A DNA stretch of 64,000 nt from a bacterium (GTDB lineage: Bacteria; Chloroflexota; Dormibacteria; Aeolococcales; Bog-877): NCBI GenBank assembly GCA_021816695.1, contig JAKAXE010000001.1:67344-131343 (forward strand), given 5' to 3'. The position numbers were made by a program, and so were the translations under genes. Positions 9,262 through 61,161 of the stretch are shown here, piece after piece. Each line of letters begins with the position of its first letter. The first letter of the stretch is position 1. The notes under the pieces were generated by a model. The model was given only the letters and a program-made list of their open reading frames with translations. It was not told the DNA's origin and ran no database searches.

Positions 9262-9280
9262 GCTTGCAGCATACGGAGCG

Positions 9281-14650: not shown

Positions 14651-14655
14651 CCGCC

Positions 14656-19966: not shown

Positions 19967-19985
19967 ATGTTCCTCACGAAGATCC

Positions 19986-20016: not shown

Positions 20017-20022
20017 GCTGCC

Positions 20023-27574: not shown

Positions 27575-27828
27575 CCACCTCAGCTCCCGACCTTCCCCGA
27601 CCCGACCGCCTTGCTCTCAGCAAGCCTGTACTTCGACCTGAAGCAGGTCAGCCGGCGGCCGCCCGGGCTCTGAGCTCGTCCCCCGGAGGCGGCCCGTTCG
27701 GCGTCTCGGCTCGTCGCTCAAGGGCTGCTGGACGCGGGCGGTGGTGCCGACTGAGCCAGGCGATGCGTGTTTTGCACAGCCGAGATGGTGTAAACTCCAG
27801 CGCCGGTGGGCAGCCCCCGCCAGTGGCC

Positions 27829-31566: not shown

Positions 31567-33149
31567 TGAAGGTCCGCGCCCAGGTCGGGATGGTGATGAA
31601 CCTGGACAAGTGCATCGGGTGTCACACTTGCAGTGTCACCTGCAAGCAGGTGTGGACCAACCGGCCCGGGACCGAGTACGTCTGGTTCAACAACGTGGAG
31701 ACCAAGCCTGGCCTCGGCTTTCCACGCCGTTGGGAGGACAACCAGACGTGGCAGGGAGGCTGGAAGCTCGACCGCCGGGGCCGGCTGCGGCTTCGGGCCG
31801 GCGGGCAGCTGCGCAAGCTGCTAACGATCTTCTGGAACCCCGACCTCCCCACCATCGACGACTACTACGAGCCCTGGACCTACGACTACCACACCCTGAT
31901 CGACGCTCCTCTCTCCGAGCGTGACCCGGTGGCTAGGCCGCAATCGCAACTCACGGGCCGGCGGATGGATGTCAAGTGGGGCCCCAACTGGGACGACATG
32001 CTGGCGGGTGCTCCCGAGACGGCCTCCCGAGACCCTGATCTGGCCGGTCTGCAGGAGCAGGTCAAGCTGACCTACGAGCGTACGTTCATGTTCTACCTGC
32101 CCCGGATCTGTGAGCACTGCCTCAACCCCTCGTGCGTCGCCTCCTGTCCCTCGGGGGCCATGTACAAGCGCGAGGAGGACGGCATAGTCCTGGTCGACCA
32201 GGAGAAGTGCCGGGGCTGGCGCTTCTGCGTGTCCGGCTGTCCCTACAAGAAGGTCTACTTCAACCACCACACCGGCAAGGCGGAGAAGTGCACCCTCTGC
32301 TACCCCCGGATCGAGCTCGGGCTGCCCACCGTGTGCTCCGAGACCTGCGTCGGCCGGATCCGCTACCTGGGCCTCGTTTTGTACGACGCCGACCGGGTCA
32401 GAGAGGCGGCCTCAGTGCCGGACGAGAAGCGCCTCCTGGACGCGCAGCTGAAGGTATTCCTCGACCCCGCGGACCCGGCGGTGCAGCGGCAGGCGCGGGC
32501 CGACGGCATCCCCGACGACTGGATCGAATACGCCCAGCGCTCCCCGGTGTACGCCTTGGCGCACCGCTGGCGGGTTGCCCTCCCACTGCACCCCGAGTAC
32601 CGCACCTTGCCCATGGTCTGGTACGTTCCCCCGCTTTCTCCGGTCGTGAACGCCATGGAGGCGGACGGCTACGAGGCTGACCCCGACCAGCTGTTCCCGG
32701 CCATCGACGCCATGCGCATCCCCCTGGACTACCTGGCCAACATCCTGGCCGCCGGCGACCGGGAGGTGGTCCGGCTGGCTTTGCGCCGCCTCGCGGGCAT
32801 GCGCAGCTACATGCGCAAGCTGGAGGTCCTGGGAGTTCGCGACCACCAGGCCGCAACGGCAGCTTCCCTGGAGCCTTCTGAGATCGAGGCGATGTACCGC
32901 TTGCTGGCGGTCGCCAAGTACGAGGACCGCTACGTCGTACCCCAGGCCCACAGTGAGCAGGCACAGCGGCTGGCCGAGTTGCCGGGGAGCTGCGGACTGG
33001 ACTTTGATGGCGGTCCAGGCAACTGTGGGGCGCTGCCACGACCCGCTCAGGGCCTCAACGAGACCTTCATGGTCCAAGACCGGAAGGTCGGAGGTCACCG
33101 GTTCGTGCCGCTGCCTGTGGTGAACCCGGGGCCTGGGCACGGCGAGTGA
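31566..33149 (+). CDS. narH: Respiratory nitrate reductase beta subunit (Fe-S)
   Basis: CIGCHTCSVTCK plus further Cys clusters (CEHCLNPSCVASCP, CRGWRFCVSGCP). TGATG overlap with narG. Confidence 0.95.
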   Translation: MKVRAQVGMVMNLDKCIGCHTCSVTCKQVWTNRPGTEYVWFNNVETKPGLGFPRRWEDNQTWQGGWKLDRRGRLRLRAGGQLRKLLTIFWNPDLPTIDDYYEPWTYDYHTLIDAPLSERDPVARPQSQLTGRRMDVKWGPNWDDMLAGAPETASRDPDLAGLQEQVKLTYERTFMFYLPRICEHCLNPSCVASCPSGAMYKREEDGIVLVDQEKCRGWRFCVSGCPYKKVYFNHHTGKAEKCTLCYPRIELGLPTVCSETCVGRIRYLGLVLYDADRVREAASVPDEKRLLDAQLKVFLDPADPAVQRQARADGIPDDWIEYAQRSPVYALAHRWRVALPLHPEYRTLPMVWYVPPLSPVVNAMEADGYEADPDQLFPAIDAMRIPLDYLANILAAGDREVVRLALRRLAGMRSYMRKLEVLGVRDHQAATAASLEPSEIEAMYRLLAVAKYEDRYVVPQAHSEQAQRLAELPGSCGLDFDGGPGNCGALPRPAQGLNETFMVQDRKVGGHRFVPLPVVNPGPGHGE

Positions 33150-33781
33150 TGCCGGGTTTCGGGCACAGGGCCCCCTACAAGCTGCTCTCGGTCCTCCTCC
33201 AGTATCCCGGAGATGAGGTAGAGCAGGCTCATCCCGAGCTGGTGGCGGCATTCGGGCGATGTGCGCCCGGTGTGCAGCGGGAGATCTCCAACTTCTTTCG
33301 CTACTGGGAGGTTACCCCCTGGCCGCGGGTGCGCGAGGAGTACGTCGAGACCTTCGACCTCCAGCGACGGTGCAGCCTCTTTCTCACCTTCTTCACCCAT
33401 GGCGACACCCGCAGGCGGGGTCAGGAGCTGCTCCGGCTCAAGTGGCTGTACCGGGCCGCCGGGCTCGAGCTGGAGGGCTCAGAGCTGCCGGACTACCTTC
33501 CGGTAATGCTGGAGTTCGCCGCCCTGGCGCCTGACGCCGCTGGCCGGGAGCTGTTGCAGGAGCACCGCCCCGGGCTGGAGCTGCTGTGGCTGCGATTGAA
33601 CGAGCTGGAGAGCCCCTACGCGTGCCTGGTCCAGCTAATCCGCCGGAGTCTACGACCACTTGCCGCGTCCCAGTTGGAGGTGGTGCGCAGGCTGGTCCAG
33701 GAAGGCCCGCCCGCCGAGGCGGTCGGCCTGCAGCCGTTCGCCCCACCGGAGGTGATGCCGTGGTCGGAGGTGCACCGGTGA
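33146..33781 (+). CDS. narJ: Nitrate reductase molybdenum-cofactor assembly chaperone
   Basis: NarJ/TorD-like ~210-aa protein between narH and narI. GTGA overlap with the narH stop. Confidence 0.85.
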   Translation: MMPGFGHRAPYKLLSVLLQYPGDEVEQAHPELVAAFGRCAPGVQREISNFFRYWEVTPWPRVREEYVETFDLQRRCSLFLTFFTHGDTRRRGQELLRLKWLYRAAGLELEGSELPDYLPVMLEFAALAPDAAGRELLQEHRPGLELLWLRLNELESPYACLVQLIRRSLRPLAASQLEVVRRLVQEGPPAEAVGLQPFAPPEVMPWSEVHR

Positions 33782-34473
33782 CCGTGGAGGAGGCGCTGCT
33801 GTTCGTGGCCCTGCCCTATTCCTCCATCACCCTCTTTGTGGCCGGGCACATCTGGCGCTATCGGCACGACAAGTTCGGGTGGACCAGCCGCTCCACCCAG
33901 CTACTGGAGCGGCGCTGGCTGGCCTGGGGCAGCAACCTCTTCCACTACGGGGCCCTGGCCGCCATCGGGGGCCACGTAGTCGGGCTCCTGATCCCCGAGC
34001 AACTGACCCATGCTGTGGGCATAAGCGAAGGCGCCTACCACCTGTTCGCGGCCGCTGCCGGCACCGTCGCCGGCCTCGCCTGCATCGCCGGGTTCGTCAT
34101 CCTGGTGGGGCGGCGCGCCTACTTCCCGCGGATCCGGCGCACGACCACCTGGACGGATGTCGTGGTCTACCTGGTGCTGGCGGGCATCATCGTCCTCGGG
34201 CTGATCGAGACCATCGGCTTCAACACCCTGGGCACCGGTTACAACTACCGCCCCACCGTCGGGGTGTGGTTCCGCAGCCTGCTGTGGCTGCACCCCGAGC
34301 CCCAGCTCATCGCGGGGGCTCCGCTGGTGTATCAGCTCCATGCCACCCTGCCGTGGATCCTCTACGCGGTCTGGCCCTTTAGCCGCCTGGTTCACGCCTG
34401 GAGCCTGCCCTGGCAGTACCTGGGCCGACCCTACATCCTTTATCGCCGTCGCTACGGCCTGGCCCGGCGCTGA
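33778..34473 (+). CDS. narI: Respiratory nitrate reductase gamma subunit (cytochrome b)
   Basis: GTG at 33778 overlaps the narJ stop (GTGA). Five TM helices with the conserved His-containing helices (ITLFVAGHIWRY, HYGALAAIGGHVVG). Confidence 0.85.
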   Translation: MTVEEALLFVALPYSSITLFVAGHIWRYRHDKFGWTSRSTQLLERRWLAWGSNLFHYGALAAIGGHVVGLLIPEQLTHAVGISEGAYHLFAAAAGTVAGLACIAGFVILVGRRAYFPRIRRTTTWTDVVVYLVLAGIIVLGLIETIGFNTLGTGYNYRPTVGVWFRSLLWLHPEPQLIAGAPLVYQLHATLPWILYAVWPFSRLVHAWSLPWQYLGRPYILYRRRYGLARR

Positions 34474-34512: not shown

Positions 34513-34977
34513 GTGGTTGAGCTTCGCTTCCGCGGCCGCCTGGAACTGGATTTCGACAGGGTGCGAGCCGTCCTCCAGGGTCCGGCCGAACGCTGGCTGC
34601 CCGGGCGCCGGCAGGCCGATGGGACCTTCCTGGTGAGGCTCCGCGCCGGCGAGCCTCCCCTTGGGCTGAAGCGGGAGGCACGGGTCTCCGTCGCTTCCGC
34701 GCAGCCCTTCGGTTGGGGGCTTGTCGTCCCGCTGGAGTGGCGGGCGGCGGTGCATCCCAGCCTCTACCCCGTACTCCTCGGGTATCTCAGAGTAGAGCCT
34801 GTCCCGGAGGGGGGTACCCGTCTGCGCTTTGACGCGCGCTACACTCCTCCGGGGGGCGGGGTCGGGAACGCCGCCGACCGCGCTTTATTGCACCGGCTGG
34901 CCCGGACGACGGTGGAGAGGTTCTTCGCGGAGGTCACATCAGGGTTGCGGGATGCGGCCAGCGGCGGGGTTGCCTAG
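34513..34977 (+). CDS. Hypothetical protein (possibly SRPBCC-like)
   Basis: 154-aa ORF of ordinary composition. No decisive motif. Confidence 0.3.
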   Translation: MVELRFRGRLELDFDRVRAVLQGPAERWLPGRRQADGTFLVRLRAGEPPLGLKREARVSVASAQPFGWGLVVPLEWRAAVHPSLYPVLLGYLRVEPVPEGGTRLRFDARYTPPGGGVGNAADRALLHRLARTTVERFFAEVTSGLRDAASGGVA

Positions 34978-39981: not shown

Positions 39982-40647
39982 TCACGGCCCCGCCAAGGCC
40001 GAGCGGCCACACAAGGCCAGGAACTCGCGGCGGAGGCCCGGGTCCTGGTCGTAGCTCCCGCGCCAGAAGGTGGTCTTGGTGCTCGACTGAAGCTCGCGCA
40101 CTCCTCTCATCTGAGTGCACATGTGGGTGCCCTCGAGGTATACCGCGATCCCGTGCGCCCCCAGCGTCGTGTCCAGGAAGTCGACTATCTCCTGGCCCAG
40201 TCGCTCCTGCACCGTGAAACGGCGAGCGTACAGCCGGACCACCCTGGTCAGCTTGGAGAGCCCGATGATGTCCTGGTGGGCGATGTAGCCCACGTGCGCC
40301 CGCCCGTAGAAGGGCAAGGCGTGATGCTCGCAGAGCGAGAAGTAGGGGATCGGTCCCTCCACCACCTGGGCGATGCGGCAGTCCGGCCCGCCCCGGCACT
40401 CGGTCGGGAAGGTGGTGATGAGCTTCGGGTCTCCGTCGTACCCACTGGTGGCGTCGTGAATCGCGGCCAGAAACCGTTCCGGGGTGCGGCGGGTTCCGGG
40501 CCGGTCCGGGGGCAACCCCAGGGCTTCGAAGATCTCCGCGAGGTAGCCCTGGAAGCGTTCCTTCTGTGCCGGGGTCAGCCGCCCGTGGCGGCTCCCCTTT
40601 GGCTCCGCCTGGCCCCCCACGCTGGCCGTCTCAGGCCGCAGTGCCAT
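39982..40647 (-). CDS. folE: GTP cyclohydrolase I
   Basis: FSLCEHHALPFYG zinc/active-site motif and 221 aa. Confidence 0.9.
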   Translation of the reverse strand: MALRPETASVGGQAEPKGSRHGRLTPAQKERFQGYLAEIFEALGLPPDRPGTRRTPERFLAAIHDATSGYDGDPKLITTFPTECRGGPDCRIAQVVEGPIPYFSLCEHHALPFYGRAHVGYIAHQDIIGLSKLTRVVRLYARRFTVQERLGQEIVDFLDTTLGAHGIAVYLEGTHMCTQMRGVRELQSSTKTTFWRGSYDQDPGLRREFLALCGRSALAGP

Positions 40648-41323
40648 CGGCTCCGTCCTCTTCGAGAGTCTCCAGGCTGAAGACGCAGCCTCCGGCGTGG
40701 CAACGGAAGGGGGTGACGTGGCCGCGGAGGGGGCTTCCCGCGAGCACCCCCTCGATCAGGCCGGCATGGAGGTTCGGCACCAGGGCTGGCTCGGCCGCGC
40801 AGGCGTCTCTGAAGGCGCACCGCTCGACCACCACCTGTCCGGGTGGGTCCAGGTGGAGCCGGTCACCCAGCGTGACCAGGGGCTCGAGCCATTCGCCCGG
40901 TGAGCCCTCGGTACGTGCCAGAGATCTTCCCAGCCGGACGGCACTATCGCGGGCGGCCGCCTGGCCCCGAGCTCCGAACTCCCGGACGGTCTCGGAGAGC
41001 ACGCGCAAGGCGGTGAGCAGGCCGTGGGCCGGGGGCTCGTTGGGAGGAGGCTCGGGGGCCAGCCGGTATGTCTTGGTGGGCCGTCCGCGGGTGCCGCGGC
41101 GCAGCCCGGTGGCCAGGTAGCCCAGGCCGACCAGCTTCTCCAGGTGGGCGTAGGCCACAGAGCGGTGCACCCCGGCCAAGGTCACCACCTGGTCCACCGT
41201 CCGAGGCCGCGGATCGCTGTAGAAGGAGAACAGGATCCCCTTTCGGGTGGGGTCTTGGAGTGCGAGGACCATCCGCTCGGTCGCCTCTCGAGGTTCCACA
41301 GCGGTAGTATACTGCTCTTCCAC
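40631..41323 (-). CDS. Winged-HTH (ArsR/TrmB-like) transcriptional regulator with C-terminal Cys/His domain
   Basis: GTG start at 41323. wHTH region is TVDQVVTLAGVHRSVAYAHLEKLVGLGYLA. C-terminal domain motif is ERCAFRDAC...HAGLIEGVL...RCHAGGC. Paralogous to the regulator at 58390-59073. Confidence 0.6.
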   Translation of the reverse strand: MEEQYTTAVEPREATERMVLALQDPTRKGILFSFYSDPRPRTVDQVVTLAGVHRSVAYAHLEKLVGLGYLATGLRRGTRGRPTKTYRLAPEPPPNEPPAHGLLTALRVLSETVREFGARGQAAARDSAVRLGRSLARTEGSPGEWLEPLVTLGDRLHLDPPGQVVVERCAFRDACAAEPALVPNLHAGLIEGVLAGSPLRGHVTPFRCHAGGCVFSLETLEEDGADGTAA

Positions 41324-41387
41324 GATATGAATGGTGTAAAAGCTATCAATCAGCCCGGGGGTTCACCCCGGCTGGCCAGGGGTTGCC

Positions 41388-42281
41388 GTGGCTGAGCCGT
41401 GGTTCGACCGGCTGGTCCGGAGCCAGAGCTGGCTCGACCCGGTGGGGGGATTGGTCCAGGCCTCGCTCAAGAGCACCTTCACGGCTCTCGGCCCGCCGGG
41501 CGGCTTGGTCCGCGACCTGCTGCATGGTTCCAAGGGGTTGGGGCACCCGCTCCACCCCGCTCTCACAGACCTTCCGCTAGGCGCCTGGGGGGCCGGAGTG
41601 GCTCTGGACTACACCGCCCACTTCGACCCGAAGCTGGGCACACAAGCCGGCGACGCGGCCCTGGCGGTGGGCCTCCTGGTGGGAGTGGCGGCCGCCATCA
41701 CGGGCTTGACCGACTCGCAGGACACCTTCGGGCAGGAGTTGCGGGTCAACATGCTGCACGGCCTGACCATGGCGACAGCGCTCCTGCTTATGGCCGCTTC
41801 CCTGGGCCTGCGGTGGTGGTCCTCCTTCGCCTGGCATCCCTTGGCGCTGGGACTGTCGACGGCCGGCCTGGCGGTGGCCATGGCCGGCATGTACGCGGGC
41901 GGCCACCTCACCTTCGGTCTCGGGACCATGGTCAACCGAAGTGCCTTCCTGAGCGGGCCGACCAGCTTCACCAGCCTCGGCATGAGCAGCGACTTCCCTG
42001 AAGGGGAGCTGTGCCCTGTTGAGGCCGACGGGATGCGGGTGGTGGTGGCCCGGGTCCAGGGGCAGCTGTGTGCCCTGAGCGCCGTCTGTTCCCACGCGGG
42101 AGGGCCCCTCGCCGAGGGGAGGCTTCAGGGGAGTGTGGTCACCTGCCCCTGGCATGGCTCCCAATTCGACCTGAAGGACGGAAGGGTGCTGCGGGGACCT
42201 GCCACCTTCCCCCAGCCGCGGTTGGTGATTCAGGAGCGGGACGGCATCGTCGAGGGGCGTCTGGCACACCCGGTGCCATAG
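41388..42281 (+). CDS. Membrane-anchored Rieske [2Fe-2S] protein
   Basis: N-terminal 4-5 TM region followed by a Rieske domain with CSHAGGPL ... CPWHGSQF (CxH...CxxH). Confidence 0.75.
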   Translation: MAEPWFDRLVRSQSWLDPVGGLVQASLKSTFTALGPPGGLVRDLLHGSKGLGHPLHPALTDLPLGAWGAGVALDYTAHFDPKLGTQAGDAALAVGLLVGVAAAITGLTDSQDTFGQELRVNMLHGLTMATALLLMAASLGLRWWSSFAWHPLALGLSTAGLAVAMAGMYAGGHLTFGLGTMVNRSAFLSGPTSFTSLGMSSDFPEGELCPVEADGMRVVVARVQGQLCALSAVCSHAGGPLAEGRLQGSVVTCPWHGSQFDLKDGRVLRGPATFPQPRLVIQERDGIVEGRLAHPVP

Positions 42282-51603: not shown

Positions 51604-51708
51604 CAGGTGGACCCGCCACCGCGAGGGGTGGTCCGGCCCCGGCGAGGGCGGCGACCAGTGCCGCCGGGCGCGCTACAAGCGGGAAGGCCCGGGCGGGGCA
51701 TCAGGATA

Positions 51709-51731
51709 ATTACACTATATGCGTCGTGTTA
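51709..51731 (+). promoter_or_regulatory. Operator-like dyad TTACAC-N10-GTGTTA in an AT-rich patch 12 nt upstream of the NnrS-like gene start
   Basis: Seen directly. Same core and spacing as the dyad at 59083-59104. Confidence 0.4.
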
Positions 51732-51742
51732 AAGGTTAGGGG

Positions 51743-53062
51743 ATGATCCGCCCGCAGCGAAGCCCCGAGATCGGCCTGCCTCTGCGCTACCTGGCGACAG
51801 GGATGGGGGCCTGGCTGCTGGCGGCCGTGGCGGTGCCCGTGCTGGCCTCCCACCTCACCTCGGGATTCGACGACCCGGAGGTCTTCGCCCTGACCCATCT
51901 CGTGGTGCTGGGCTGGGTGACCATGACACTCATGGGGGCCCTCTTCCAGCTCTTCCCGGTGGCCCTCCAGGCCACCCTTGCCGCACCGCGCCTGGTCCGA
52001 TGGAACTACTTCGTCTACACGGCTGGGGTGGCCGGCTTTGTGCCCAGCTTCTACTTCAACTGGACCCCGGGCGTGGCCGGCTTCGGGAGCCTTGCGGTTC
52101 TCGGGATCCTGGTCTTCGCCGCGGTGCTGGCCGTCAGCTACCGGACCGTCCGCACCCGGCACCCCATGGGGCTGTTCGTCCTCTGCGGGCTCGCCTGGCT
52201 CCTGGTCACTATCGGCTTCGGGCTGACCTGGGCCCTGGACTGGCAGTTCCAGTGGTTCGCGATCACCCCCAACATGCTCGCCGCCCACGTCCACGCCGGG
52301 CTGGCGGGTTGGTTGGGATGCACTCTGATCGGAGTCTCGTACAAGCTCATGGAGCTGTTCGCGCTGGCGCACCGCCGCAGCTGGCGGGCGGCCCACATCC
52401 TGCTGGTCCTCTGGAACGGCTCTCTGGCGGCGCTGGTGCTGGGTCTTCTGCTCTGGCCCGGCAGCATCGAGGTCAGGGTGGCGTCCACCGCGCTCGCTGG
52501 AGCGGTGCTCCTGTTCGCGGCCGACCTCTTCCAGATGTGGCGAGGGCGACGCCGTCGCCGGGTCTCCGTGGAGCAGGGCCACGTGGCCGTCAGCCTCACC
52601 TCGCTGCTGATGGCGGCAGGCCTGGGGGTCCTGCTCAGCGCCGGGGTCGATTTCCCCCCGCGGGCCTTCGTCGCCTACGGCTACGCCGCCATCATGGGAG
52701 GATTCGGCTTCGCCATCGCCGGCCGGTACCAGAAGATCCTCCCCTTCCTCACCTGGGTCCATCGCTACTCTCGGGGCCCCGGGCCAACTCCGCCTCCGTT
52801 GCTCCAGGACCTCGTGGATGAGCGCCTGGGATGGATCAGCCTGCTTGTCCTCACCGCGGGATACGCCACCACTTTGGGAGGCCTCCTTGCTGGTTCGCCG
52901 GTGGCGGTCCTGGGAGGTGGTGCGGTGTACGCCGCCGGGGCGGTGCTGGGGCTGGGGGCGGTGCGCCTCACCCTCCTTCCGGCCCGTGCCGCCCGGCGGT
53001 CGTCCCCTGCTGCTGCCCTGCCAGGATCACGGACCGGGACCTCGGCGCCCCCCTCCCCCTGA
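51743..53062 (+). CDS. Polytopic (about 12 TM) membrane protein, possibly NnrS-like heme-copper protein
   Basis: 439 aa with about 12 hydrophobic helices and conserved-looking His residues in helices (THLVVLGW, HVHAGLAGW, HRRSWRAAH). The assignment rests on topology and genomic context and is uncertain. Confidence 0.45.
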   Translation: MIRPQRSPEIGLPLRYLATGMGAWLLAAVAVPVLASHLTSGFDDPEVFALTHLVVLGWVTMTLMGALFQLFPVALQATLAAPRLVRWNYFVYTAGVAGFVPSFYFNWTPGVAGFGSLAVLGILVFAAVLAVSYRTVRTRHPMGLFVLCGLAWLLVTIGFGLTWALDWQFQWFAITPNMLAAHVHAGLAGWLGCTLIGVSYKLMELFALAHRRSWRAAHILLVLWNGSLAALVLGLLLWPGSIEVRVASTALAGAVLLFAADLFQMWRGRRRRRVSVEQGHVAVSLTSLLMAAGLGVLLSAGVDFPPRAFVAYGYAAIMGGFGFAIAGRYQKILPFLTWVHRYSRGPGPTPPPLLQDLVDERLGWISLLVLTAGYATTLGGLLAGSPVAVLGGGAVYAAGAVLGLGAVRLTLLPARAARRSSPAAALPGSRTGTSAPPSP

Positions 53063-53067
53063 GCAGG

Positions 53068-54332
53068 TGGTGAAGGCTACTCCAACTCGGAAACCGCCGC
53101 CCACCGTGGTGGTGATCGGGGCGGGGTTCGCCGGTCTGGCCGCGATGGCGGATCTCGCCAGGCTGGGCTGGGACGCCTGGCTGGTGGAACGGCAGCCCTA
53201 CACGACCTTCCAGCCGCTTCTCTACCAGGTGGCGACCGGGGGCCTGAATCTGGAGGATGTCGCCTTCCCCATCCGCAGCCTGCTGCGCCGGATGGGTCGC
53301 GGAAGATTCGTGCAGGGCGTCGCGGCCTCCGTCGACTGGGACCTGAGACAGGTGACCCTGGAAGGTGGGCAGACCCTCTCTTACGACCACCTGCTGCTGG
53401 CCACGGGAGCCGCACCCAAGTTCTTCGGTGTGCCCAGCGCGGCCGAGTTGGGGCTTCCCCTCCACACCCTGGTGGACGCGGCCCGGCTGCGAACTCGGCT
53501 CGTTGCGGTGCTGGAGCGGGCCGCCGCCGACCACACCCAGCACCGGGTGCACCTGGTGGTGGTGGGAGGAGGGCCGACCGGGGTGGAGACGGCCGGGGCG
53601 CTGGCGGAGCTCCGGGACCTTTTGGCGGGGAGGGACTATCCGGAACTGGGCCGGGATGACATCAGCATCGAGCTCCTGGAGGCGGCTCCGCGGCTGCTCC
53701 CCAGCTTTCACCCGGAGCTGTCCCGCTACGCTCGCCGGGAGCTGGAACGGCGCTCTGTGGTCGTTTTAACCGGCAGCGCAGTCCGGCAGGTGCAGGAAGG
53801 GGCGGTCCTTCTCGACTCCGGGCTGAGGCCTACGGACCTTTTGGTCTGGTCGGCCGGAGTGGAGGTGGCCGACTCCCCCTTGCTGCGCGGCCTGGCCCGG
53901 ACCGCGTCGGGGCGGCTGGACGTCACCCCTTCCCTGCAACTGCCAGGTCACCCAGAGGCCTTTGCCCTGGGGGACTGTGCCGGCGCGCGAGCCGGCACGG
54001 CTGAACTGCCGCAGCTGGCTCAGCCAGCGATCCAGGCCGGTCGGCATGCGGTGCGGCAGCTGCGCCGGATTCGCTCCGGTCAGGAGCCCCTGCCCTTCCG
54101 GTATCGCGACCGGGGGACCATGGCCACCATCGGCAGGCGGGCGGCGGTGGCCCAGCTTCGAGGCGGGCTCAGGCTCACCGGAACGGCCGCCTGGCTCGCC
54201 TGGCTGGGGCTACACCTAGTGGAGCTCCTCGGGGTCCGCAACCGAGCCTCGGTCCTGCTCAATTGGACCTGGCACTACCTGGCCTGGCGGCAGGCCGCGG
54301 GACTGATCCCACCAGCACCTGGCCCCGGATAG
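53068..54332 (+). CDS. ndh: Type II NADH:quinone oxidoreductase (NDH-2)
   Basis: VVVIGAGFAGL and VVVGGGPTGVE dinucleotide-binding motifs. GTG start near 53068. The track ORF from 52818 overlaps the preceding gene in another frame. Confidence 0.8.
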
Positions 54333-54348
54333 CCAGGCCCCGGACTCC

Positions 54349-54741
54349 TCAGGGTCCGGGGAGGACGGCGAGAGCCGCTCCCAGTCCGAGAATGGCAATC
54401 GAGCCGATCAGGGTCATGCCCGCCAGAAGCCGGGTGCGGTGCCGAGGCAACCGATGCGCCACCAGGCCGTGGACCGCCGCCAGGGCGAAGACAGCTCCCA
54501 CGAGCGCCGCCTTCACCAAAAGGACCCTTCCGAAGGCAGTGGTGGTGAGGTTGCCGAGGCGCACCCCGTTCAGGGCGGCCAGGGCGATCCCGCTGGCCAC
54601 CAGCACCGGCAGAAGCACCCAGTTGGTGACCGTCGCGAAGCGCCGTCCCGTAGAACTCGCCAGCTCCCGCACCAGCTGCGGTGACCCGCCGCTGCGCAGC
54701 ACGGGCATGACCACCACGACAAGCATGAGCTGGCCCCCCAC
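54349..54741 (-). CDS. Small hypothetical membrane protein (about 130 aa)
   Basis: Four short hydrophobic helices. The frame extends upstream without a clear start (GTG in WVGG or the ATG). The 219-aa track ORF 54275-54934 in another frame is Arg/Pro-rich and rejected. Confidence 0.35.
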   Translation of the reverse strand: MGGQLMLVVVVMPVLRSGGSPQLVRELASSTGRRFATVTNWVLLPVLVASGIALAALNGVRLGNLTTTAFGRVLLVKAALVGAVFALAAVHGLVAHRLPRHRTRLLAGMTLIGSIAILGLGAALAVLPGP

Positions 54742-54834
54742 CCAGAAGCTGGCGGCCAGGACATGAACCAGGACGAGGAGTGTCCACAGCAGCGGGCTCA
54801 GCGCATGTTCTCCGGCTACCGGAGGGGGCGCGGA

Positions 54835-55386
54835 TCAGCCGCCAACTAGCTGCTCCATCCGTTCCCAAAGCTCTGTCCGAGCGTGGGAGTCCAGGGGCGG
54901 TCGGCCCAGGACGAGCACGGTCGGCTCGTCCCACCCGAGATCCCAGGATGCGCTGAGCCGTCCCGAATCCGGTTCTGTGGACTCCACGGTCATGGAGAAG
55001 GGCGTCCTCAGCATCCGCAGGGTCTCCTCAAGCTCGCGGAGGGGAAGGATCCCGGTGGCGGAAAAGCGCAGCTCTAGACCATCCGCCTGGTCGGCCCGGG
55101 CCGTGCAGCTGGTCTCGTCGGCGACCGCAGCTGCCAACCGGTGGGCGATGAGGTGCGCCCGCGTGGTGGTCTGGGAGTCGAGCAGCTCCCCCTGGATCTG
55201 CTTCCACGAGGCGCCCTGGGTCAGGCGCTCCATGGCGTGGAGGGCTGAGGTCACCTCACGCGGCTCCATCGGGCCGATGGAAAGGGAGACCTCGAGGAGT
55301 GCCCCGCACCCCTGGCTCCGACCTCGCTCTGGGGAAAGCCCGGCCACCACCTCCACGGCTTCGCCGGGCGCCGTCCGAGATGCCAA
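54835..55386 (-). CDS. Hypothetical protein, last gene of the redox operon
   Basis: 183 aa of ordinary composition, 3 nt downstream of fdxA. No motif. Confidence 0.4.
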   Translation of the reverse strand: MASRTAPGEAVEVVAGLSPERGRSQGCGALLEVSLSIGPMEPREVTSALHAMERLTQGASWKQIQGELLDSQTTTRAHLIAHRLAAAVADETSCTARADQADGLELRFSATGILPLRELEETLRMLRTPFSMTVESTEPDSGRLSASWDLGWDEPTVLVLGRPPLDSHARTELWERMEQLVGG

Positions 55387-55388
55387 CC

Positions 55389-55694
55389 TCAGGCCCCCTG
55401 CACCACCCGCGGCTTGAGCTCCTCAACCCGGGCCCGGGCTGCGGCCGGATCCTTGAAGTACTGCTCATTGATCTCCGTGTACTGGTTCCACTGCGGCGGC
55501 AGGTCCTCCTCCGCGTAGATGGCGTCCACCGGACAGGGGTCCACACACGCCCCACAGTCGATGCACTCCAGAGGGTTGATGTAGAGCATGCGATCCTCGT
55601 CGGTCCCGATGATGCAATCGACCGGGCACACCTCGACGCAGGCCTTGTCCTTCACATCGACACAAGTCTCTCCGATCACGTAGGTCAACGCCAT
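55389..55694 (-). CDS. fdxA: 7Fe ferredoxin ([3Fe-4S][4Fe-4S], FdxA type)
   Basis: TYVIGETCVDVKDKACVEVCPVDCI ... CIDCGACVDPCPVDAI Cys pattern, 101 aa. Confidence 0.9.
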   Translation of the reverse strand: MALTYVIGETCVDVKDKACVEVCPVDCIIGTDEDRMLYINPLECIDCGACVDPCPVDAIYAEEDLPPQWNQYTEINEQYFKDPAAARARVEELKPRVVQGA

Positions 55695-55728
55695 TCCTCC
55701 TCAGGGCTAGGTCGAGCCCCCATGCAGG

Positions 55729-56040
55729 TCACCGCTCCACCTCGATTACGACCTCGTCGTGCTCCCGAAGGGTGGGATACGTCTGCAGCGGGAGCACCGC
55801 CGGAAGGTTGAGCACGTCCCCAGTGGCGAGGTCGAAGCACGACCCGTGGCAGGGGCATTCCACGGCCTCCCCCTCCAGCGCCCCCGCACTGAGCGAGCAG
55901 TCCTCGTGGGTACAGGTGTCATCCACCGTGTACCAGCCACCACTCTCGGTGTGGGCCAGGCAGAGGACCTTCTCGCCGAGCTCGAGGCGAAGAAGTCCTG
56001 GCCGCGGTAGCGTGGCCACCGGGATTCGGACGGTCGCCAC
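55729..56040 (-). CDS. Soluble Rieske [2Fe-2S] ferredoxin-like protein (NirD/oxygenase-ferredoxin type)
   Basis: CTHEDCSL ... CPCHGSCF (CxH...CxxH). Start is probably the GTG near 56040 (VATVRIP...). The track ORF extends to 56199. Confidence 0.7.
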   Translation of the reverse strand: MATVRIPVATLPRPGLLRLELGEKVLCLAHTESGGWYTVDDTCTHEDCSLSAGALEGEAVECPCHGSCFDLATGDVLNLPAVLPLQTYPTLREHDEVVIEVER

Positions 56041-56041
56041 C

Positions 56042-56284
56042 TCAGCTGGCGCGGACACGACTACCCCCTTGCGGCCGCCGGCAGGTGAGGTGATGGAGGG
56101 TCCCGGTGAAGCGCTCGGCAGCCGCTGGGTCCCACTTCTCCAAGAGGGCGTAGGCGGAAGCCGCCATCCGGCAGGCGCTCTCCACCTGGCCGGCATCACC
56201 GAGCTCCCGCAGGGCCTGGTCCAGGATCCTGGCCAGCCTGCCTGTGGCGGTCACTGCGAGCGGCGCCCGATCCGGACCTTCCAT
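56042..56284 (-). CDS. Small hypothetical protein (80 aa)
   Basis: ORF of ordinary composition bridging the OsmC-fusion and Rieske genes. Overlaps the OsmC-fusion C-terminus by 34 nt, so coding status is uncertain. Confidence 0.25.
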   Translation of the reverse strand: MEGPDRAPLAVTATGRLARILDQALRELGDAGQVESACRMAASAYALLEKWDPAAAERFTGTLHHLTCRRPQGGSRVRAS

Positions 56285-56925
56285 GTCTTCGGGCCCTGCT
56301 CCAGGTATTCCCAGCTGAACTCCTCGCCCCTGGTGGCCTCGAGCTGGTAGCGCAGGGGCAGAGGATCATGGTCGTTCACCAGGGTTAGGTTCCTGCCGGC
56401 CTCCAGCCGGTCGATGGTGGAGAAGATCAGCTGATGGCGCTGGGCAGGGGCCAGGGAGCGGACGTCCAGTTCCTCCTGCGCCGCTTCGGGGGCTCGGACC
56501 GACACCCGGCCCACCCGGTACTCCACCTCGCTCCGCAGGTGCTTGCCGATGAAGCAGTGCTCCCGGGCCAGGTTGGCCGCAGACTGGTAGGCGTCATGGC
56601 GCGTGGGATCTCCGCCCAGCACCTCTGGGGTCACCAGGAGCTCAGAGATCCGCAGCGGCTGGCCCTCCACCCGCTGTCGCATCCTCACCTGGACCTTATC
56701 CCAGGGGAGGCCGTCTCGGTTCAGGAGTGAACTGAGGGTGCCGGTGTAACAGGTGGCGACCGCGCTGGCCAGGAGCTCCTCCGGGCTGCTCCCCTCGCCC
56801 CGCCCGCCCATCCCGGCGGGGACGGACCAGGCCAGGACCTGGTCCCCGGTCTCGACTGTGCCGAGCGCGTCCCGGCCGACTCCGGACCACCGGGTGGTCA
56901 CCTCGAACGTCAGCTCATTCATCAT
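56251..56925 (-). CDS. OsmC/Ohr-family domain fused to a C-terminal DUF2249-like domain
   Basis: N-terminal OsmC-like region TRWSGVGRD...SPEELLASAVATCY. C-terminal LDVRSLAPAQRHQLIFSTIDRLEAGRNLTLVNDHDPLPLRYQLE, which resembles the stand-alone DUF2249-like protein at 57815-58051. Confidence 0.6.
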   Translation of the reverse strand: MMNELTFEVTTRWSGVGRDALGTVETGDQVLAWSVPAGMGGRGEGSSPEELLASAVATCYTGTLSSLLNRDGLPWDKVQVRMRQRVEGQPLRISELLVTPEVLGGDPTRHDAYQSAANLAREHCFIGKHLRSEVEYRVGRVSVRAPEAAQEELDVRSLAPAQRHQLIFSTIDRLEAGRNLTLVNDHDPLPLRYQLEATRGEEFSWEYLEQGPKTWKVRIGRRSQ

Positions 56926-57822
56926 TCATCTCCCTTCTTCCCCATCGCCCTTCCCTGCCTCTTGCTGAGGCATGGGCTCCTCCGGATGGCCTCCCGTCAG
57001 GCTCTGCACCATTGCCTCCCGCTCATCCGGGCCGAGCCGGGAGAGCAGGGGAAGGTACAGCTCCTCCTCCTTGTCGAAGTGCAGCTGGACCGTCGTCGCC
57101 AGCTGCTGGAGCAGCGCGCGCACCTCCTCCGAGCGCCCCGCGGCAGCCGCTCGCTCCAGATCCCCTGCCAACCGCTCGATGCGGCGGTGGTCGTACTCCA
57201 TGGTGGCGGTCGCCTTGGCTTCAGCCCTGAGCACCCGGCCTACCTGGGGGTAGATGAGGCGCTCCTCGGCTCGCGCGTGCGGGAGGAGTTCATTCTCCAG
57301 GAACTCGATCGCGGTCTGGATCTCTCCGTCAAGCTGATCGACGTCGCCTCTCGAAAGTCGCTGGGCGAGAAGGCCCAGGTGGGCCACCCCGTTGATCAGC
57401 TCCCGGTGCTCGGAGCGGATGACGGCTGCCGGGTCCGGGCCCGGGGGCCGCACCGGCCAGGCCACCGACTCATCTCCCAGGTGGTCGCCCGCACCGGGTG
57501 GAGGGGACACGATGGCCAGCGCCACGAGCCGCCCGGCAGGGCAACGCACTCCCCGAGCGACACCGGCTGGTACGGTGGCCACCTCCCCCGCCAGGAGCCA
57601 CCGAGTCGTGTCGCCGGTGAGCAGTTCGGCCGTTCCCTGAAGGACGCAGAGGACCAGCCCGCTGGTCGGGCGGTGAGGTGGCAGCTCCCGCCCGGGCGTC
57701 AGCTCCAGCAGGAGCACCCGGTGCGAGGGCGCATCGCTCAGGGTTCGAGCGATCGGACCCCCACTGGATCGGACCTTATCAGAATGGATCACCTCGACTT
57801 CGGTGGCCGCTGCCTCACCCAT
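56926..57822 (-). CDS. Cupin domain fused to hemerythrin-like (HHE cation-binding) domain
   Basis: N-terminal cupin beta-barrel pattern (LLELTPGRELPPHRPTSGLVLCVLQG). C-terminal His/Glu/Asp pattern HRELINGVAHL...EFLENELLPHARAEE...MEYDHRRIE...LHFDKEEELYLPLL. Confidence 0.7.
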   Translation of the reverse strand: MGEAAATEVEVIHSDKVRSSGGPIARTLSDAPSHRVLLLELTPGRELPPHRPTSGLVLCVLQGTAELLTGDTTRWLLAGEVATVPAGVARGVRCPAGRLVALAIVSPPPGAGDHLGDESVAWPVRPPGPDPAAVIRSEHRELINGVAHLGLLAQRLSRGDVDQLDGEIQTAIEFLENELLPHARAEERLIYPQVGRVLRAEAKATATMEYDHRRIERLAGDLERAAAAGRSEEVRALLQQLATTVQLHFDKEEELYLPLLSRLGPDEREAMVQSLTGGHPEEPMPQQEAGKGDGEEGR

Positions 57823-58051
57823 CGCGCCGCGCCTCCAGTGGGCTGAAGACCACCAGGAAGTCTCCCTCGCCCAGGTCCTCCGTCTCGTGGCCGTATCCCC
57901 GGGACTCCATCACCGAGTAGAGAGGAACCGGGTCGAGGGGCGCCACGAGCTCGAGCGGTTCTCCAGGGGAGAGGGCGGAGACCGCCGCCATGATCGCCGC
58001 GAAGGGCTCTTCTCCTCTGGCCATCAGCCCCCGGACATCCAGATGGGCCAT
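57815..58051 (-). CDS. DUF2249-like small protein (78 aa)
   Basis: LDVRGL...PFAAIMAAVSALSPGEPLELVAPLDPVPLYSVMESRGYGHE matches the DUF2249 pattern seen fused in the neighbouring gene. Confidence 0.5.
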   Translation of the reverse strand: MAHLDVRGLMARGEEPFAAIMAAVSALSPGEPLELVAPLDPVPLYSVMESRGYGHETEDLGEGDFLVVFSPLEARRDG

Positions 58052-58057
58052 CCGACC

Positions 58058-58393
58058 TCAGCTCCAGCCCAGGGCTTGCTTGGCGGCGGGACTCATCATG
58101 TCCGGCTCCCAAGGTGGCTGCCACACCAGCTCCACCGCCACCTCACGGACTCCTGGGATCGTCTCCAGGCGGAACCGGACCTGATCTGGGATGCTGCCCC
58201 CCATTGGGCAGCCCGGGGTGGTCAGGGTCATCGCTACCAGCAGAGCACCTTCGTGGACCTCGAGTCCGTACACCAGCCCCAGGTTCACGAGGTCGATGCC
58301 CAGCTCGGGATCGTAGACCTCCAGGAGGCGCTGCCAGGCTTCCTGCTCGATCGCTGGGTCGCCCAGGGTGTCCGCCAGCGGTGGTGTCATCAC
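58058..58393 (-). CDS. DUF59 / SufT-like Fe-S cluster assembly protein (MIP18 family)
   Basis: YDPELGIDLVNLGLVY ... TPGCPMG motif, 111 aa. Confidence 0.75.
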   Translation of the reverse strand: MMTPPLADTLGDPAIEQEAWQRLLEVYDPELGIDLVNLGLVYGLEVHEGALLVAMTLTTPGCPMGGSIPDQVRFRLETIPGVREVAVELVWQPPWEPDMMSPAAKQALGWS

Positions 58394-59073
58394 TCACCCG
58401 CGCTGGTGACCGCATCCCTGCCGGCGAGATCGGCGACGCAGAGGTTCGGCTCGACCAGCGGGTGGAGCTCGGAGACGGTGACCCCGGCCCCGACCTCTGC
58501 CAGCGCCCCGCGCAGCAAGCCCAGGTGCGCTGAGCAGATGAGCTGGCGGTTCCCGGCGGCCACTTCCAGGAACGGGCAGCGGTGAAGGTTGATTCGCGAC
58601 CGCCCCTGAACCTCTTCGAGCTCCGGGCTGAACCCCAGGTCCGCCAGCATCCCGAGGACCCGGGGTAGCCCCCCTCCGCTCTCGGCAGCGTCCGCACGCG
58701 CGAGCTCGGCACCCCACCGGGTTCCGAGCTCCAGGCCCGTCCTCTCAGCACTGGGGGACGAGGTCGAGAGATAGCCGGACAGCACCTCGGCCAGCATCCG
58801 GTATCCGGCCTCTGGCCCTGCATTCACCACTGCATGCCAGATCCGCCGGGGCCGGCCCCGGCGCAACCGACGCTCCGTCTCCGAGGCGACCAAGCCTGCG
58901 CGCGCCAGCACCTCGAGATGGAATCGCACCGTGTTCACATGTATCCCCGCCCGCTCCGCGAGCTCCTGGGCGTCCAGCGGCGCCGGGGCCCTGCGAAGCT
59001 CCTCGAGCAGGGCGACCCGGGTCCAGTCCGAGAGGGCCCGGTGGGCCCGTAGGGAGGTCTCAGGTGTGCTCAT
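58390..59073 (-). CDS. ArsR-like winged-HTH regulator with C-terminal Cys/His domain; first gene of the redox operon
   Basis: ATG at 59073-59071 (MSTPETS...). wHTH region [32 protein letters not shown]-terminal motif HRCPFLE...[15 protein letters not shown]. The 378-aa track ORF from 59526 is an upstream over-extension. Confidence 0.7.
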
Positions 59074-59082
59074 GCCGATATT

Positions 59083-59138
59083 ATACACAACAGATATTGT
59101 GTCAATCATGCGACGACAGATACACGTCTGTGTCCGCA
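59083..59138. promoter_or_regulatory. AT-rich operator-like region: ATACAC-N10-GTGTCA dyad plus a second ACAGATACACGTCTGTGTC dyad between the divergent ArsR-like regulator and yyaL-like gene
   Basis: First dyad at 59083-59104 and second at 59117-59138, in a conspicuous AT-rich 70-bp intergenic patch. The same ACAC-N10-GTGT core and spacing recurs at 51710-51731. Confidence 0.4.
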
Positions 59139-59145
59139 GTACCTT

Positions 59146-61161
59146 GTGGCGATGAACCGCCTCGCCCAGGAGTCCAGCCTCTATCTCCGCCAGCATCAGG
59201 AGAACCCGGTCGACTGGTACCCCTGGGGTGAGGAGGCGTTCACCGTCGCCCGGGCAGAGGACAAGCCGGTGCTGCTGAGCGTGGGCTACTCCACCTGCCA
59301 CTGGTGCCACGTGATGGCCCACGAGTCCTTCTCCGACCCCGAGGTTGCCGAGCTCCAGAACCGCCTCTTCGTCTCCATCAAGGTGGATCGGGAGGAGCGC
59401 CCCGGGGTCGACCGGATCTACATGGAGGCGCTGCTTGCCTTCACCGGGTCCGGCGGCTGGCCCATGACCGTCTTCCTCCTCCCGGATGGGCGGCCCTACT
59501 TCGCCGGAACGTACTTCCCACCCCAAGATCGTGGCGGCCTTCCTGCCTTCCGCCGGGTGCTGCTGGCGGCCGCGGCAGCCTACCGGGACCGGCGCCCGGA
59601 TCTCGAGGCGACCTCCCGCGAGCTGGCACGGGCGCTGGCGCCCTCAAGGGTCGGCGGGACCGGGTCGGCTCCCTCGCAGGAGGACCTCGCCGCCGCCTCG
59701 GAGCGCGTCCTCGCCGGCTGGGACAAGGACCACGGGGGGCTGCGCGGTGCGCCCAAGTTCCCCCAGGCTCCCCTCCTGGAGTTCCTCCAGGCGCGCTGGG
59801 CACTGCGCGGGGACCAGGACGCCGGGCGGGCCGTGGGACTGACCCTCCGACGCATGGCGGAGGGCGGGATTCACGATCAGTTGGGAGGTGGATTCCACCG
59901 CTACTCGGTGGATGACCGTTGGGGGGTACCCCACTTCGAGAAGATGCTCTATGACCAGGCCCAGCTGATCCCCCTCTACCTCCATCACTGGCAGATGCAG
60001 CGAGATGAGGGGGCGCTCGGGGTGGCCGTCCAGACCGCGGAATTCATAGTCAGCGGACTCGGGCTGCCTTCGGGAGGGTTCGCCGCTGCCGTCGACGCCG
60101 ACTCCGCCGGCCGGGAGGGGCTCACCTACCTCTGGACCCGGGAGCAGCTGGAGAGCGCCGGGGGGGAGGGCTGGCGGGAGTTCTGGAGGCTGGATCCCGG
60201 CGCCCGGGTGGACGGTGACTTCGTGCTCCAGGCCGCGCTCCCCTGGGGGCGCCTTCCGCCTGGGGCCGCGGAGGTGCGCTCGCGGCTCCTGGCGGAGCGG
60301 GCGGAGCGCCCCCAGCCCCAGCGGGACGACAAGGTCGTGGTGGCGTGGAACGCTCAGGCGGCCAGCGCGCTCGCGGAGCTGGGGCTCCTGCTTTCGGATG
60401 ACCGATTCCTCACCCCGGCGCTGCGGTGTGCCCTCTTGCTCTGGGAGAGCGCGCGTGACTCCGAGGGCGGGCTCACCCATCTCCTGTACGGCTCGAGCTC
60501 CCGCCTTCCGGCCACCCTTGAGGACCGGGCGGCGCTCGGCCTGTGCGGCCTTTGGATGCACGAGCTCACCGGCGACGGGGTGTGGGTGGAGCGGTCCTTG
60601 GATTTGGCGGAGTCGGCCGAGCGGCTCCATCGGGACGGGGCGGGGCTATGGCACGAGACGGCCGCCGGAGCTGACCCCCTGCTGCCGGCTCGGCCGACCG
60701 TGGTTGACGACGGGGCCACGCGCTCCGGGATCTCCCAGATGGCCTCCCTCTGCTGGCGGCTCTGGCAGCTCACCGGGGAGGCGTCGTGGTCGGAGCGGGC
60801 CGAGGCGGCCGCGTCGCGTCTCGGCCGGGGCGCGACCGGCCAGCCCCTGGCCTTCGGAGGGCTCCTGGCCGACCTCGAGTCCATGAACGCTGGGGGGACC
60901 CAGCTGGCCATAGCAGCTGCACCAGGGGAACATCTCGAGCTCCTCCGCCGGGCTCGCTCCCACTTCTTGCCGACCCTGGTGGTGGCAGTGGGCACCGGGT
61001 CGGAGTCGGATCCGCCACTCGCCGCCGGGCGGCCGGCCCTGGGCGGCATCCCTACGGCACACGTCTGCCGTGACTTCACCTGCCGGATGCCCACCACGCT
61101 GGTAGACGACCTCGAGGCGCAGCTTTCCGCCGCGCGATCCGCGGGGAGCATGGGAGGATAG
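59146..61161 (+). CDS. Thioredoxin-domain protein of the YyaL/DUF255 family (N-terminal thioredoxin-like fold plus six-hairpin-glycosidase-like domain)
   Basis: N-terminal [13 protein letters not shown]...[20 protein letters not shown] signature, 671 aa. Confidence 0.9.

Follow-up and report, generated by a model that had tools for sequence, protein, structure and literature searches.

Organisation of the locus

The DNA considered here is a 64-kb stretch of contig JAKAXE010000001.1 from a member of the Candidatus Dormibacteria (hereafter the window; 70% G+C), in which a dyad of the form ACAC-N10-GTGT stands close in front of each of two gene groups. One group starts with the gene of a helix-turn-helix (HTH) regulator, which we call Reg1, and the other consists of the genes of a membrane protein with 12 transmembrane (TM) helices and of a type II NADH:quinone oxidoreductase (NDH-2). 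A sequence-only reading of the region had proposed that the two dyads are shared operators of the Reg1 operon and the membrane-protein/NDH-2 pair, and that the adjacent Cys/His-bearing HTH protein binds them. The comparative and family-level evidence presented below, namely the hallmarks of the regulator, the retention of both dyads in relatives and the divergent arrangement of regulator and membrane gene in some of them, argues for the core of this proposal. We consider it reasonably probable (roughly 0.7) that the dyads are operators of a SufR-like (COG2345) repressor and that the binder is most likely Reg1, an ArnR-like protein. Other parts of the proposal needed revision: proteins had to be relabelled, a paralogue of Reg1 (Reg2) has to be weighed as an alternative binder, and the motif also stands before a third operon, narGHJI. 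The sites and the genes next to them are as follows (window coordinates).

Site 1: 51704..51735, plus strand, gATAATTACAC-N10-GTGTTAAAGG; dyad 51710-51731, CAC/GTG core 51713-51728
Site 2: 59078..59108, minus strand, on the regulator strand gATTGACAC-N10-GTGTATAATat; dyad 59083-59104, core 59086-59101
Site 3 (new, from the relaxed scan described below): 27767..27798, plus strand, gtgTTTTGCAC-N10-GTGTAAACTcc; core 27775-27790, directly 5' of narG
Site 4 (weak candidate): 41321..41336, plus strand, cttcCAC-N10-GTGTAAAAG; between Reg2 and the DUF2231-Rieske gene
Membrane protein: 51743..53062, plus strand, 12 TM helices, 439 aa, heme-copper-oxidase subunit-I-like fold
NDH-2: 53067..54332, plus strand, Pyr_redox_2 and NDH2_C domains
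Reg1: 58390..59073, minus strand, SufR/ArnR-like (COG2345) by Pfam HTH_20, alignment and AF2 model, 227 aa
yyaL-like DUF255/thioredoxin-domain gene: 59140..61161 (including its -10 box), plus strand, ATG at 59152; Thioredox_DsbH, E 2e-70
narG: 27829-31566, plus strand, start uncertain by a few codons (Pfam)
narH: 31566-33149, plus strand (Pfam)
narJ: 33146-33781, plus strand (Pfam)
narI: ending at 34473, plus strand (Pfam); the operon spans 27829..34473
Reg2: 40631..41272, minus strand, divergent SufR-like paralogue with an RGRP AT-hook (hhalign), 213 aa
DUF2231-Rieske membrane-protein gene: 41388..42281, divergent from Reg2

Position, rarity and conservation of the sites

Both noted dyads were confirmed on the sequence, with the shared core and spacing that had been claimed for them. 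TTACAC-N10-GTGTTA at site 1 ends 11 nt before the membrane-gene ATG (51743), not 12 nt as first given, and ATACAC-N10-GTGTCA at site 2 lies between the Reg1 ATG (minus strand, 59073) and the yyaL/DUF255 ATG (59152). True symmetry is limited to the 4-nt core at both: the reverse complement of TTACAC is GTGTAA and the actual right arm of site 1 is GTGTTA, while that of ATACAC is GTGTAT and the right arm of site 2 is GTGTCA. The description of their surroundings as rare AT-rich patches was apt, the two sites occupying two of only six such patches in the window. At sites 1-3 the dyad is accompanied on both sides by A/T tracts ~10-12 bp from its centre and overlaps a promoter; site 4 combines one good half-site with a poor one and has an A/T tract on one side only. 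The half-site consensus, TTWACAC, is matched by seven of the eight half-sites of sites 1-4.

The architecture is rare. The window contains just two copies of ACAC-N10-GTGT, where 0.42 would be expected, and also two of TACAC-N10-GTGT, where 0.08 would be expected; two matches were reached by the shorter pattern in 6 of 100 whole-window shuffles and by the longer one in 1 of 100. A relaxed scan for an A/T-rich heptamer (at least 5 of 7), CAC-N10-GTG and a second A/T-rich heptamer (at least 5 of 7) found three matches in the window, where shuffles that preserve local composition predict 0.02 and none of 3000 gave two or more. When the scan was extended to 370 kb, made up of the window and 25 Dormibacteria loci, eight matches were obtained, seven of them at promoters of the regulator or the membrane gene and one at narG. 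A further 1.27 Mb of loci held only two, one directly after a regulator homologue (L056) and the other in a contig of 45% G+C. In these comparisons, loci L001-L080 are the 80 loci with a Reg1 homologue, L081-L160 are contigs with narG relatives, and L161-L164 bear on the pairing of Reg2 with its neighbour. Rfam and tRNA scans of the window returned no RNA genes, and we therefore see no explanation of the sites as RNA elements.

Sites 1-3 are each placed at a promoter. Hexamers resembling -10 boxes lie 6-7 nt before the start codon, and are kept in orthologues, at the membrane gene (TAAAGG), Reg1 (TATAAT) and yyaL (TACCTT; regions 51730-51743, 59073-59085 and 59140-59154, respectively). The right arm of site 1 abuts or overlaps TAAAGG at 51730-51735, an arm of site 2 overlaps the conserved TATAAT (59085-59080) 6 nt before the Reg1 ATG, and the right arm of site 3 abuts a -10-like TAAACT at 27791-27796. 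The promoters whose -10 boxes the right arms of sites 1 and 2 abut or overlap appear to be leaderless, and the placement of the box at three genes suggests that leaderless transcripts may be common in this organism. The dyad centres lie 22.5 nt before the membrane-gene ATG and 20.5 nt before the Reg1 ATG, and such a position, -20.5/-22.5, is that expected of a repressor occluding RNA polymerase.

Conservation covers both dyads. Upstream regions of Reg1 orthologues in L001-L005 read TTGnCAC-N10-GTGTATAAT-N6-start. Those of membrane-gene orthologues in L004, L005 and L016 read gATAATTACAC-N10-GTGnTAAAG-N7-start, with ATAATTACAC-N10-GTGnTAAAG kept in all three, and in more distant membrane-gene orthologues the start is preceded, at 7 nt, by GTGTAAAAT or ACGTAAAAT. 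In Pseudonocardiaceae homologues (L036, L043, L045, L059, L064, L067 and L069) we noted a strongly conserved block of another form, TTATTAGAC-N15-TTTATTAGGGTAGGG, with two A/T tracts and ~60 nt upstream of the regulator, which probably is that clade's version of the operator; several of the seven loci have a divergent COX1-like gene, and L064 has hmp downstream.

Site 2 had been described as promoter-proximal between Reg1 and the divergent yyaL-like gene. This holds with respect to Reg1, whose promoter it overlies; yyaL has a -10-like box of its own (TACCTT, 59140-59145), 6 nt before its ATG and 45 nt from site 2. TACCTT-N6-start is readable before yyaL in L001, L003 and L005, and TAGTCT-N7 in L012. 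Because of this conserved box, and with the centre of site 2 ~58 nt 5' of the yyaL ATG, control of yyaL from site 2 is not implied. A second dyad in the yyaL leader, ACAC-N4-GTGT at 59122-59133, is not kept even in L005, where the regulator is 93% identical, and is probably incidental; it forms part of the hairpin-capable ACAGAtacacgTCTGT.

Reg1 and the SufR-like family

The wHTH (winged HTH) formed by the N-terminal 85 residues of Reg1 is of the ArsR/SmtB type (Pfam HTH_20, E 4e-12; HTH_5, E 2e-6), but the label 'ArsR-like', if taken to mean a classical metal-sensing ArsR, does not suit the protein. Unlike ArsR/SmtB proteins, which have ~100-120 aa and metal sites at alpha-3N or alpha-5, Reg1 is twice as long, scores 38.1 bits against a cut-off of 55 for the metalloregulator family NF033788 (HTH_metalloreg) of NCBIfam, bears an AT-hook in its wing and carries a separate Cys/His domain. 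No Pfam match was obtained for this C-terminal domain. The AF2 model consists of a wHTH with a 10-residue, hook-bearing wing loop (residues 67-76, joining strands 62-66 and 77-81), a pair of long helices and an alpha/beta domain. Foldseek matched the full-length model to PDB entries over the HTH only (ArsR, CzrA, SmtB, Phr; residues ~1-100), and a profile search of the PDB gave weak matches of residues 109-204 to TRAPPC3 (E 0.03-0.13). A TRAPPC3-like sensory domain is reported by the studies of both family members discussed next (bioRxiv 10.64898/2025.12.26.696629; PMC12343034).

An alignment of 27 homologues shows which residues are retained. R50, H52, G73-R74-P75-R76, C166, C180, H183 and C212 are invariant and R72 nearly so; the first two belong to an R-x-H motif in recognition helix alpha-3 (sequence VRFH), R72-G-R-P-R76 is an AT-hook in the wing loop, and the Cys/His pattern is C166-X13-C180-X2-H183-X28-C212. 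These features match the hallmarks of SufR-like COG2345 regulators as defined by the cryo-EM study of SufR of Mycobacterium tuberculosis (Mtb), in which 50-RRH-52 lies in helix alpha-3, 75-RGRP-78 forms an AT-hook in an extended wing, and the ligands of the [4Fe-4S] cluster are C179, C192, E195 and C220, the fourth position being commonly occupied elsewhere by other metal-binding residues including His (bioRxiv 10.64898/2025.12.26.696629). Reg1 has the R-x-H at the same positions 50-52, the RGRP hook in the wing, and three Cys with a non-Cys ligand position three residues after the second Cys; its site would likewise be autoregulatory, over its own promoter, and its operon contains a SufT-type gene. 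By sequence, Reg1 is a SufR-like COG2345 regulator bearing the hallmarks of the family, for which a [4Fe-4S] cluster is predicted.

The operators are alike as well. The Mtb SufR operator, ATTTTGTCACACT-N5-TGTGAAAAT, is a palindrome with A/T tracts that are required for binding (bioRxiv 10.64898/2025.12.26.696629), and its succession of A/T tract, CAC, ~9-10 nt, GTG and A/T tract is nearly that of the sites described here. At site 1 the tracts are centred ~12.5 and 10.5 bp from the dyad centre, and in the Mtb operator as printed ~12 and 10 bp.

A search for the SufR motif of cyanobacteria and Streptomyces, CAAC-N6-GTTG, led to an ACAA-N6-TTGT within site 2, which is not conserved in orthologues and was set aside.

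Reg1 is at the same time unlike SufR in several respects. Its fourth ligand position is His rather than Glu, its Cys spacing is X13 rather than X12, and no sufBCDSU genes adjoin it; its neighbours point to nitrate/NO (nitric oxide) metabolism and not to Fe-S assembly. With no suf genes in its vicinity, a classical SufR role for Reg1 was rejected.

The other family member for comparison is ArnR of Corynebacterium glutamicum, an NO-sensing [4Fe-4S] repressor of narKGHJI and hmp, encoded directly downstream of narKGHJI, with C179/C193/C223 and, close to them, a conserved His; apart from SufR, no other member of COG2345 has known targets (PMC12343034). Reg1 resembles ArnR in its ArsR-like wHTH, dimerisation helices and Cys-rich sensory domain, and in the C-X13-C spacing (C166/C180/C212 in Reg1) with a conserved His near the cluster. 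The resemblance extends to a predicted site upstream of narG, to the linkage of the family with narG, hmp and nirK-like genes, and to a ~25-bp AT-rich dyad over the promoter. The comparison draws on the published features of ArnR. Unlike ArnR, Reg1 belongs to another phylum, no hmp was found in the window, and the predicted Reg1 regulon adds a SufT/DUF2249/hemerythrin/Rieske/ferredoxin operon and the oxidase-like protein with NDH-2.

Gene linkage across genomes

The genes downstream of Reg1 form with it an operon whose order is conserved in L001-L016.

58058-58393, minus strand: SufT/DUF59, downstream of Reg1
57815-58051, minus strand: stand-alone DUF2249 of 78 aa (E 6e-18)
56926-57822, minus strand: cupin-hemerythrin
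56251-56925, minus strand: OsmC-DUF2249
55729-56199, minus strand: Rieske
55389-55694, minus strand: ferredoxin
54835-55386, minus strand: unknown protein
54349-54834, minus strand: CopD-like

The 78-aa DUF2249 open reading frame (ORF) is easily missed; the ~240-nt gap holding it is conserved in orthologous loci. Among the neighbours of Reg1 homologues in the 80 loci, DUF2249 is found in 37, SufT in 30 and ferredoxin in 28. SufB, SufC, SufD and SufS domains were absent from the annotated genes of the window.

In most Dormibacteria loci no more than 10 kb separate the membrane gene from the regulator, and in four of them (L018, L019, L024, L025) the two genes are directly divergent and share an intergenic region of 60-83 nt. 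The nitrate reductase genes show a similar association: narG is found within 10 kb of Reg1 homologues in three Dormibacteria loci (L008, L011, L024), in Gaiellaceae (L065), in Pseudonocardiaceae (L068) and in Geodermatophilus (L078, where narG is divergent from the regulator), and narH with narI near the homologue of Nocardiopsis (L073). A single back-to-back promoter region in L008 and L011 serves the membrane gene in one direction and, in the other, a short ORF that leads into narG. Actinobacterial Reg1 homologues adjoin genes for flavohaemoglobin (L064), nirK-like multicopper oxidase and COX1-like proteins (L057 and others); the flavohaemoglobin gene is directly downstream of the homologue in L064 only. 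In the window, the narGHJI operon is preceded by the third copy of the operator architecture, TTTTGCAC-N10-GTGTAAACT. By this linkage, Reg1, narGHJI and the membrane protein with NDH-2 would belong to one putative nitrate/NO-linked unit, and the operators that now stand apart in the window may descend from a shared bidirectional control region.

Some details of the nar loci may be added. Between the shared promoter region and narG, a conserved unknown ORF of ~270 aa is present in L008 (~5990-6880) and L024 (~2400-3230). The narG of L008 has a strong GGAGG ribosome-binding site and not a leaderless start. In the window, an unknown ORF of 154 aa (34513-34977) comes after narGHJI, and then a gene for a SLAC1/TehA-like anion channel (35002-35961).

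The membrane protein and NDH-2

The downstream gene of the pair had been read as NDH-2, and its domains bear this out (Pyr_redox_2, E 7e-44; Pyr_redox, E 6e-13; NDH2_C, E 4e-8). Its start follows the stop of the membrane gene by 4-7 nt, an adjacency kept in L001-L005 and L013, and because of this short gap the two genes are probably co-transcribed.

The membrane protein had been called NnrS-like. PF05940 gave no match to the window protein (E<=10) nor to any of the 31 members of its family (E<=1), and an identity as NnrS was rejected on this evidence; a search of the literature for a link between NnrS and the oxidase fold yielded nothing usable. The window protein itself matches no Pfam or NCBIfam model, and 23 of the 31 family members match PF00115. 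Its AF2 model (pLDDT 90.8) retrieves with Foldseek the cbb3 oxidase subunit CcoN (3mk7_A, E 4e-7, TMq 0.72) and the cNOR subunit NorB (3o0r_B, TMq 0.68), and it superposes on aa3/bo3 subunit I too with TM ~0.7. The protein has in common with heme-copper oxidase subunit I and NnrS its 12 helices and an NO/nitrate-linked context, and with CcoN, NorB and CoxA a fold at TM ~0.7. Unlike oxidases and NO reductases, which have six metal-ligand His, the family keeps two: only H52 and H182 are invariant among the 31 sequences, and the canonical six-His metal centre is therefore absent. Judged from the model, the protein is of an oxidase subunit-I-like fold, neither a canonical oxidase or NO reductase nor demonstrably NnrS. 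The family is mostly Dormibacterial.

A model of the predicted regulon

From the observed sites, their rarity, conservation and promoter position, the hallmarks of the regulator and the gene linkage across genomes, we infer the following scenario, in which the binder's identity, the act of repression, the presence of a cluster, NO as the signal and leaderless transcription are all conditional. A [4Fe-4S]-loaded Reg1 dimer would sit, by homology with SufR and ArnR, on a ~30-bp element of the form TTWACAC-N10-GTGTWAA, with its two HTH helices near the CAC and GTG arms and with the minor grooves of the A/T tracts on either side occupied by its two RGRP AT-hooks. Bound in this manner, the regulator would block RNA polymerase, as the sites lie over the -10 boxes of transcripts that would start at or near the start codon. 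Nitrosylation or loss of the cluster, caused by NO or possibly by oxidants or Fe-S damage, would then release Reg1. Three units might be de-repressed in consequence: the Reg1 operon (SufT, DUF2249, cupin-hemerythrin, OsmC-DUF2249, Rieske, ferredoxin and others), the oxidase-subunit-I-like membrane protein with NDH-2 and, probably, narGHJI.

Several observations weigh against this reading. The TACAC/ACAC core that had been claimed as shared holds in the window, but the outer A varies at the regulator promoters of orthologues (CCAC or TCAC), and the unit that is conserved is CAC-N10-GTG with its A/T tracts; each arm contributes 3-4 bp to the symmetric core, which is short. Where regulator orthologues share 57-60% identity, GAC stands in the left arm and the dyad is imperfect, with the A/T tracts and the spacing retained; such drift would be explained if, as in the Mtb SufR system, the A/T tracts were required and the core were tolerant of mutation. 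Mutations of the palindrome core had little effect on Mtb SufR, so that CAC/GTG may matter less than the A/T tracts (bioRxiv 10.64898/2025.12.26.696629). The right arms coincide with -10 elements and the left arm of site 2 is TTGACA, so part of the conservation could be that of promoters. The ArnR site at the hmp promoter of C. glutamicum, GGATTTAATCTAATTAAATAAATCC, differs from TTWACAC-N10-GTGTWAA. For site 3, the metagenome contigs with narG relatives (L081-L160) showed no corresponding site, though other genes, often narK, stand upstream in them, which makes the comparison uninformative. Finally, the window also encodes the paralogue Reg2, next to a half-site of similar form (site 4); Reg2 could bind some of the sites, while synteny favours Reg1 for the membrane gene and narG.

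Alternative explanations

The concern about promoters can be put in its strongest form, that the architecture is a core promoter and nothing else, with a -35-like TTGACA or TTACAC and a 'GTG'-extended -10 read by RNA polymerase, the dyad arising from promoter elements or as a relic of back-to-back promoters. We regard this as improbable. It would fit the contact of the right arms with conserved -10 hexamers 6-7 nt before the starts, the call of TTGACA-N16-TAATAT at site 2 by a promoter scan, the truly bidirectional promoter in the same region of L008, L011, L018 and L019, and the -10-like reverse complement of the left arm of site 1, GTGTAATTAT. The call at site 2, however, requires TAATAT as the -10, and the hexamer that orthologues conserve is TATAAT, which puts TTGnCA at a spacing of just 14 nt, not enough for a -35; TTGACA as the -35 of site 2 was rejected for this reason. 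A canonical promoter, TTGACA-N16-TATTAG (19965-20031), exists elsewhere in the window, and like the TACCTT box of yyaL and the TATACT box of Reg2 it lacks the motif. The yyaL, Reg2 and transketolase promoters are without GTG before the -10, whereas every promoter that bears GTG has CAC exactly 10 nt upstream, and the architecture is confined in 370 kb to the regulator, membrane-gene and narG promoters. The left arm of site 1 is moreover conserved without a leftward gene, and the reverse complement of the left arm of site 3, GTGCAAAAC, is not -10-like.

The sites might also be real operators of which some or all are bound by another factor, either Reg2 or an unlinked protein of the CRP/FNR, Rex or Rrf2 type whose gene lies beyond the window, a possibility to which we give about the same small weight. 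Reg2 is itself COG2345-like (hhalign against the Reg1 family: probability 97.7%, 28% identity) with an RGRP hook, has CAC-N10-GTGTAAAAG in its own divergent intergenic region, and lies ~6 kb beyond the nar operon, much like arnR downstream of narKGHJI in C. glutamicum. Its Cys pattern is altered. The conserved partner of Reg2, on the other hand, is not the membrane gene or narG but the DUF2231-Rieske gene, from which it is always divergent (pairing conserved in L161-L164), and its element, kept in L161, has lost CAC/GTG in L163 at 62% identity; the linkage of the membrane gene and narG across genomes is with Reg1-family genes and not with Reg2.

No CRP/FNR or Rrf2 gene was seen among the annotated genes of the window, and the sites known for such proteins are built differently. 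Those of CRP, FNR, NnrR and Rex have the opposite arm order (TGTGA...TCACA or TTGAT...ATCAA) with 4-6-nt spacers, NsrR sites are 11-1-11 AT-rich repeats and ArsR/SmtB sites 12-2-12 repeats. None of these operator types fits the dyads, and the SufR-type layout does.

A chance likeness of two AT-rich intergenic patches would be in keeping with a pattern picked after viewing the sequence, with a core of 4+4 nt and with the frequency of double matches in whole-window shuffles, but we consider it very improbable in view of the conservation of both sites in orthologous promoters, the excess of three matches over the local shuffles, the independent third match upstream of narG and the synteny that ties the genes together.

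Implications

SufR-like COG2345 proteins have recently been recognised to form a large family of Fe-S transcription factors, whose members use an HTH and an AT-hook to read DNA (bioRxiv 10.64898/2025.12.26.696629), and if Reg1 binds the three or four predicted operators of the expected layout, the window would offer a testable second example beyond ArnR, in an uncultured phylum. Its distinctive points would be a fourth cluster-ligand position occupied by His instead of Glu and a predicted regulon that joins nitrate reductase, Fe-S maintenance and an oxidase-like protein with NDH-2. This might provide a functional lead for clusters of DUF2249 and hemerythrin genes, for a branch of the oxidase superfamily that is poor in ligands, and for nitrate/NO handling in Dormibacteria, which are abundant in cold, dry soils.

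A bolder extension can be formulated, which we think unlikely as a whole. The Dormibacteria regulon would serve as a combined response to nitrosative stress and nitrate respiration, in which a His-ligated ArnR-like sensor switches on nitrate reductase together with an undescribed heme-copper oxidase branch lacking four of the six ligands. Coupled to NDH-2 and quinone, this protein might catalyse a novel reaction that handles NO or dissipates electrons, whether it stands in functionally for NnrS or qNOR or does something else; repair or protection of Fe-S proteins would fall to the linked SufT/DUF2249/hemerythrin/Rieske/ferredoxin operon.

Other features of the window

Two features lie apart from the regulon considered above. 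The minus strand of 3495-16493 carries a conjugation-type cluster with SLT and CHAP cell-wall hydrolases, a VirB4/TraG-P-loop-like ATPase of 883 aa, an unknown protein of 858 aa and a VirD4/TraG coupling protein, which may be an integrated conjugative element or its remnant. At 19490-20031, a MerR-family gene is divergent from a split transketolase pair, and the promoter TTGACA-N16-TATTAG mentioned above holds a perfect palindrome, CTTAACATTAAG, in its spacer, the typical position of a MerR-type operator.

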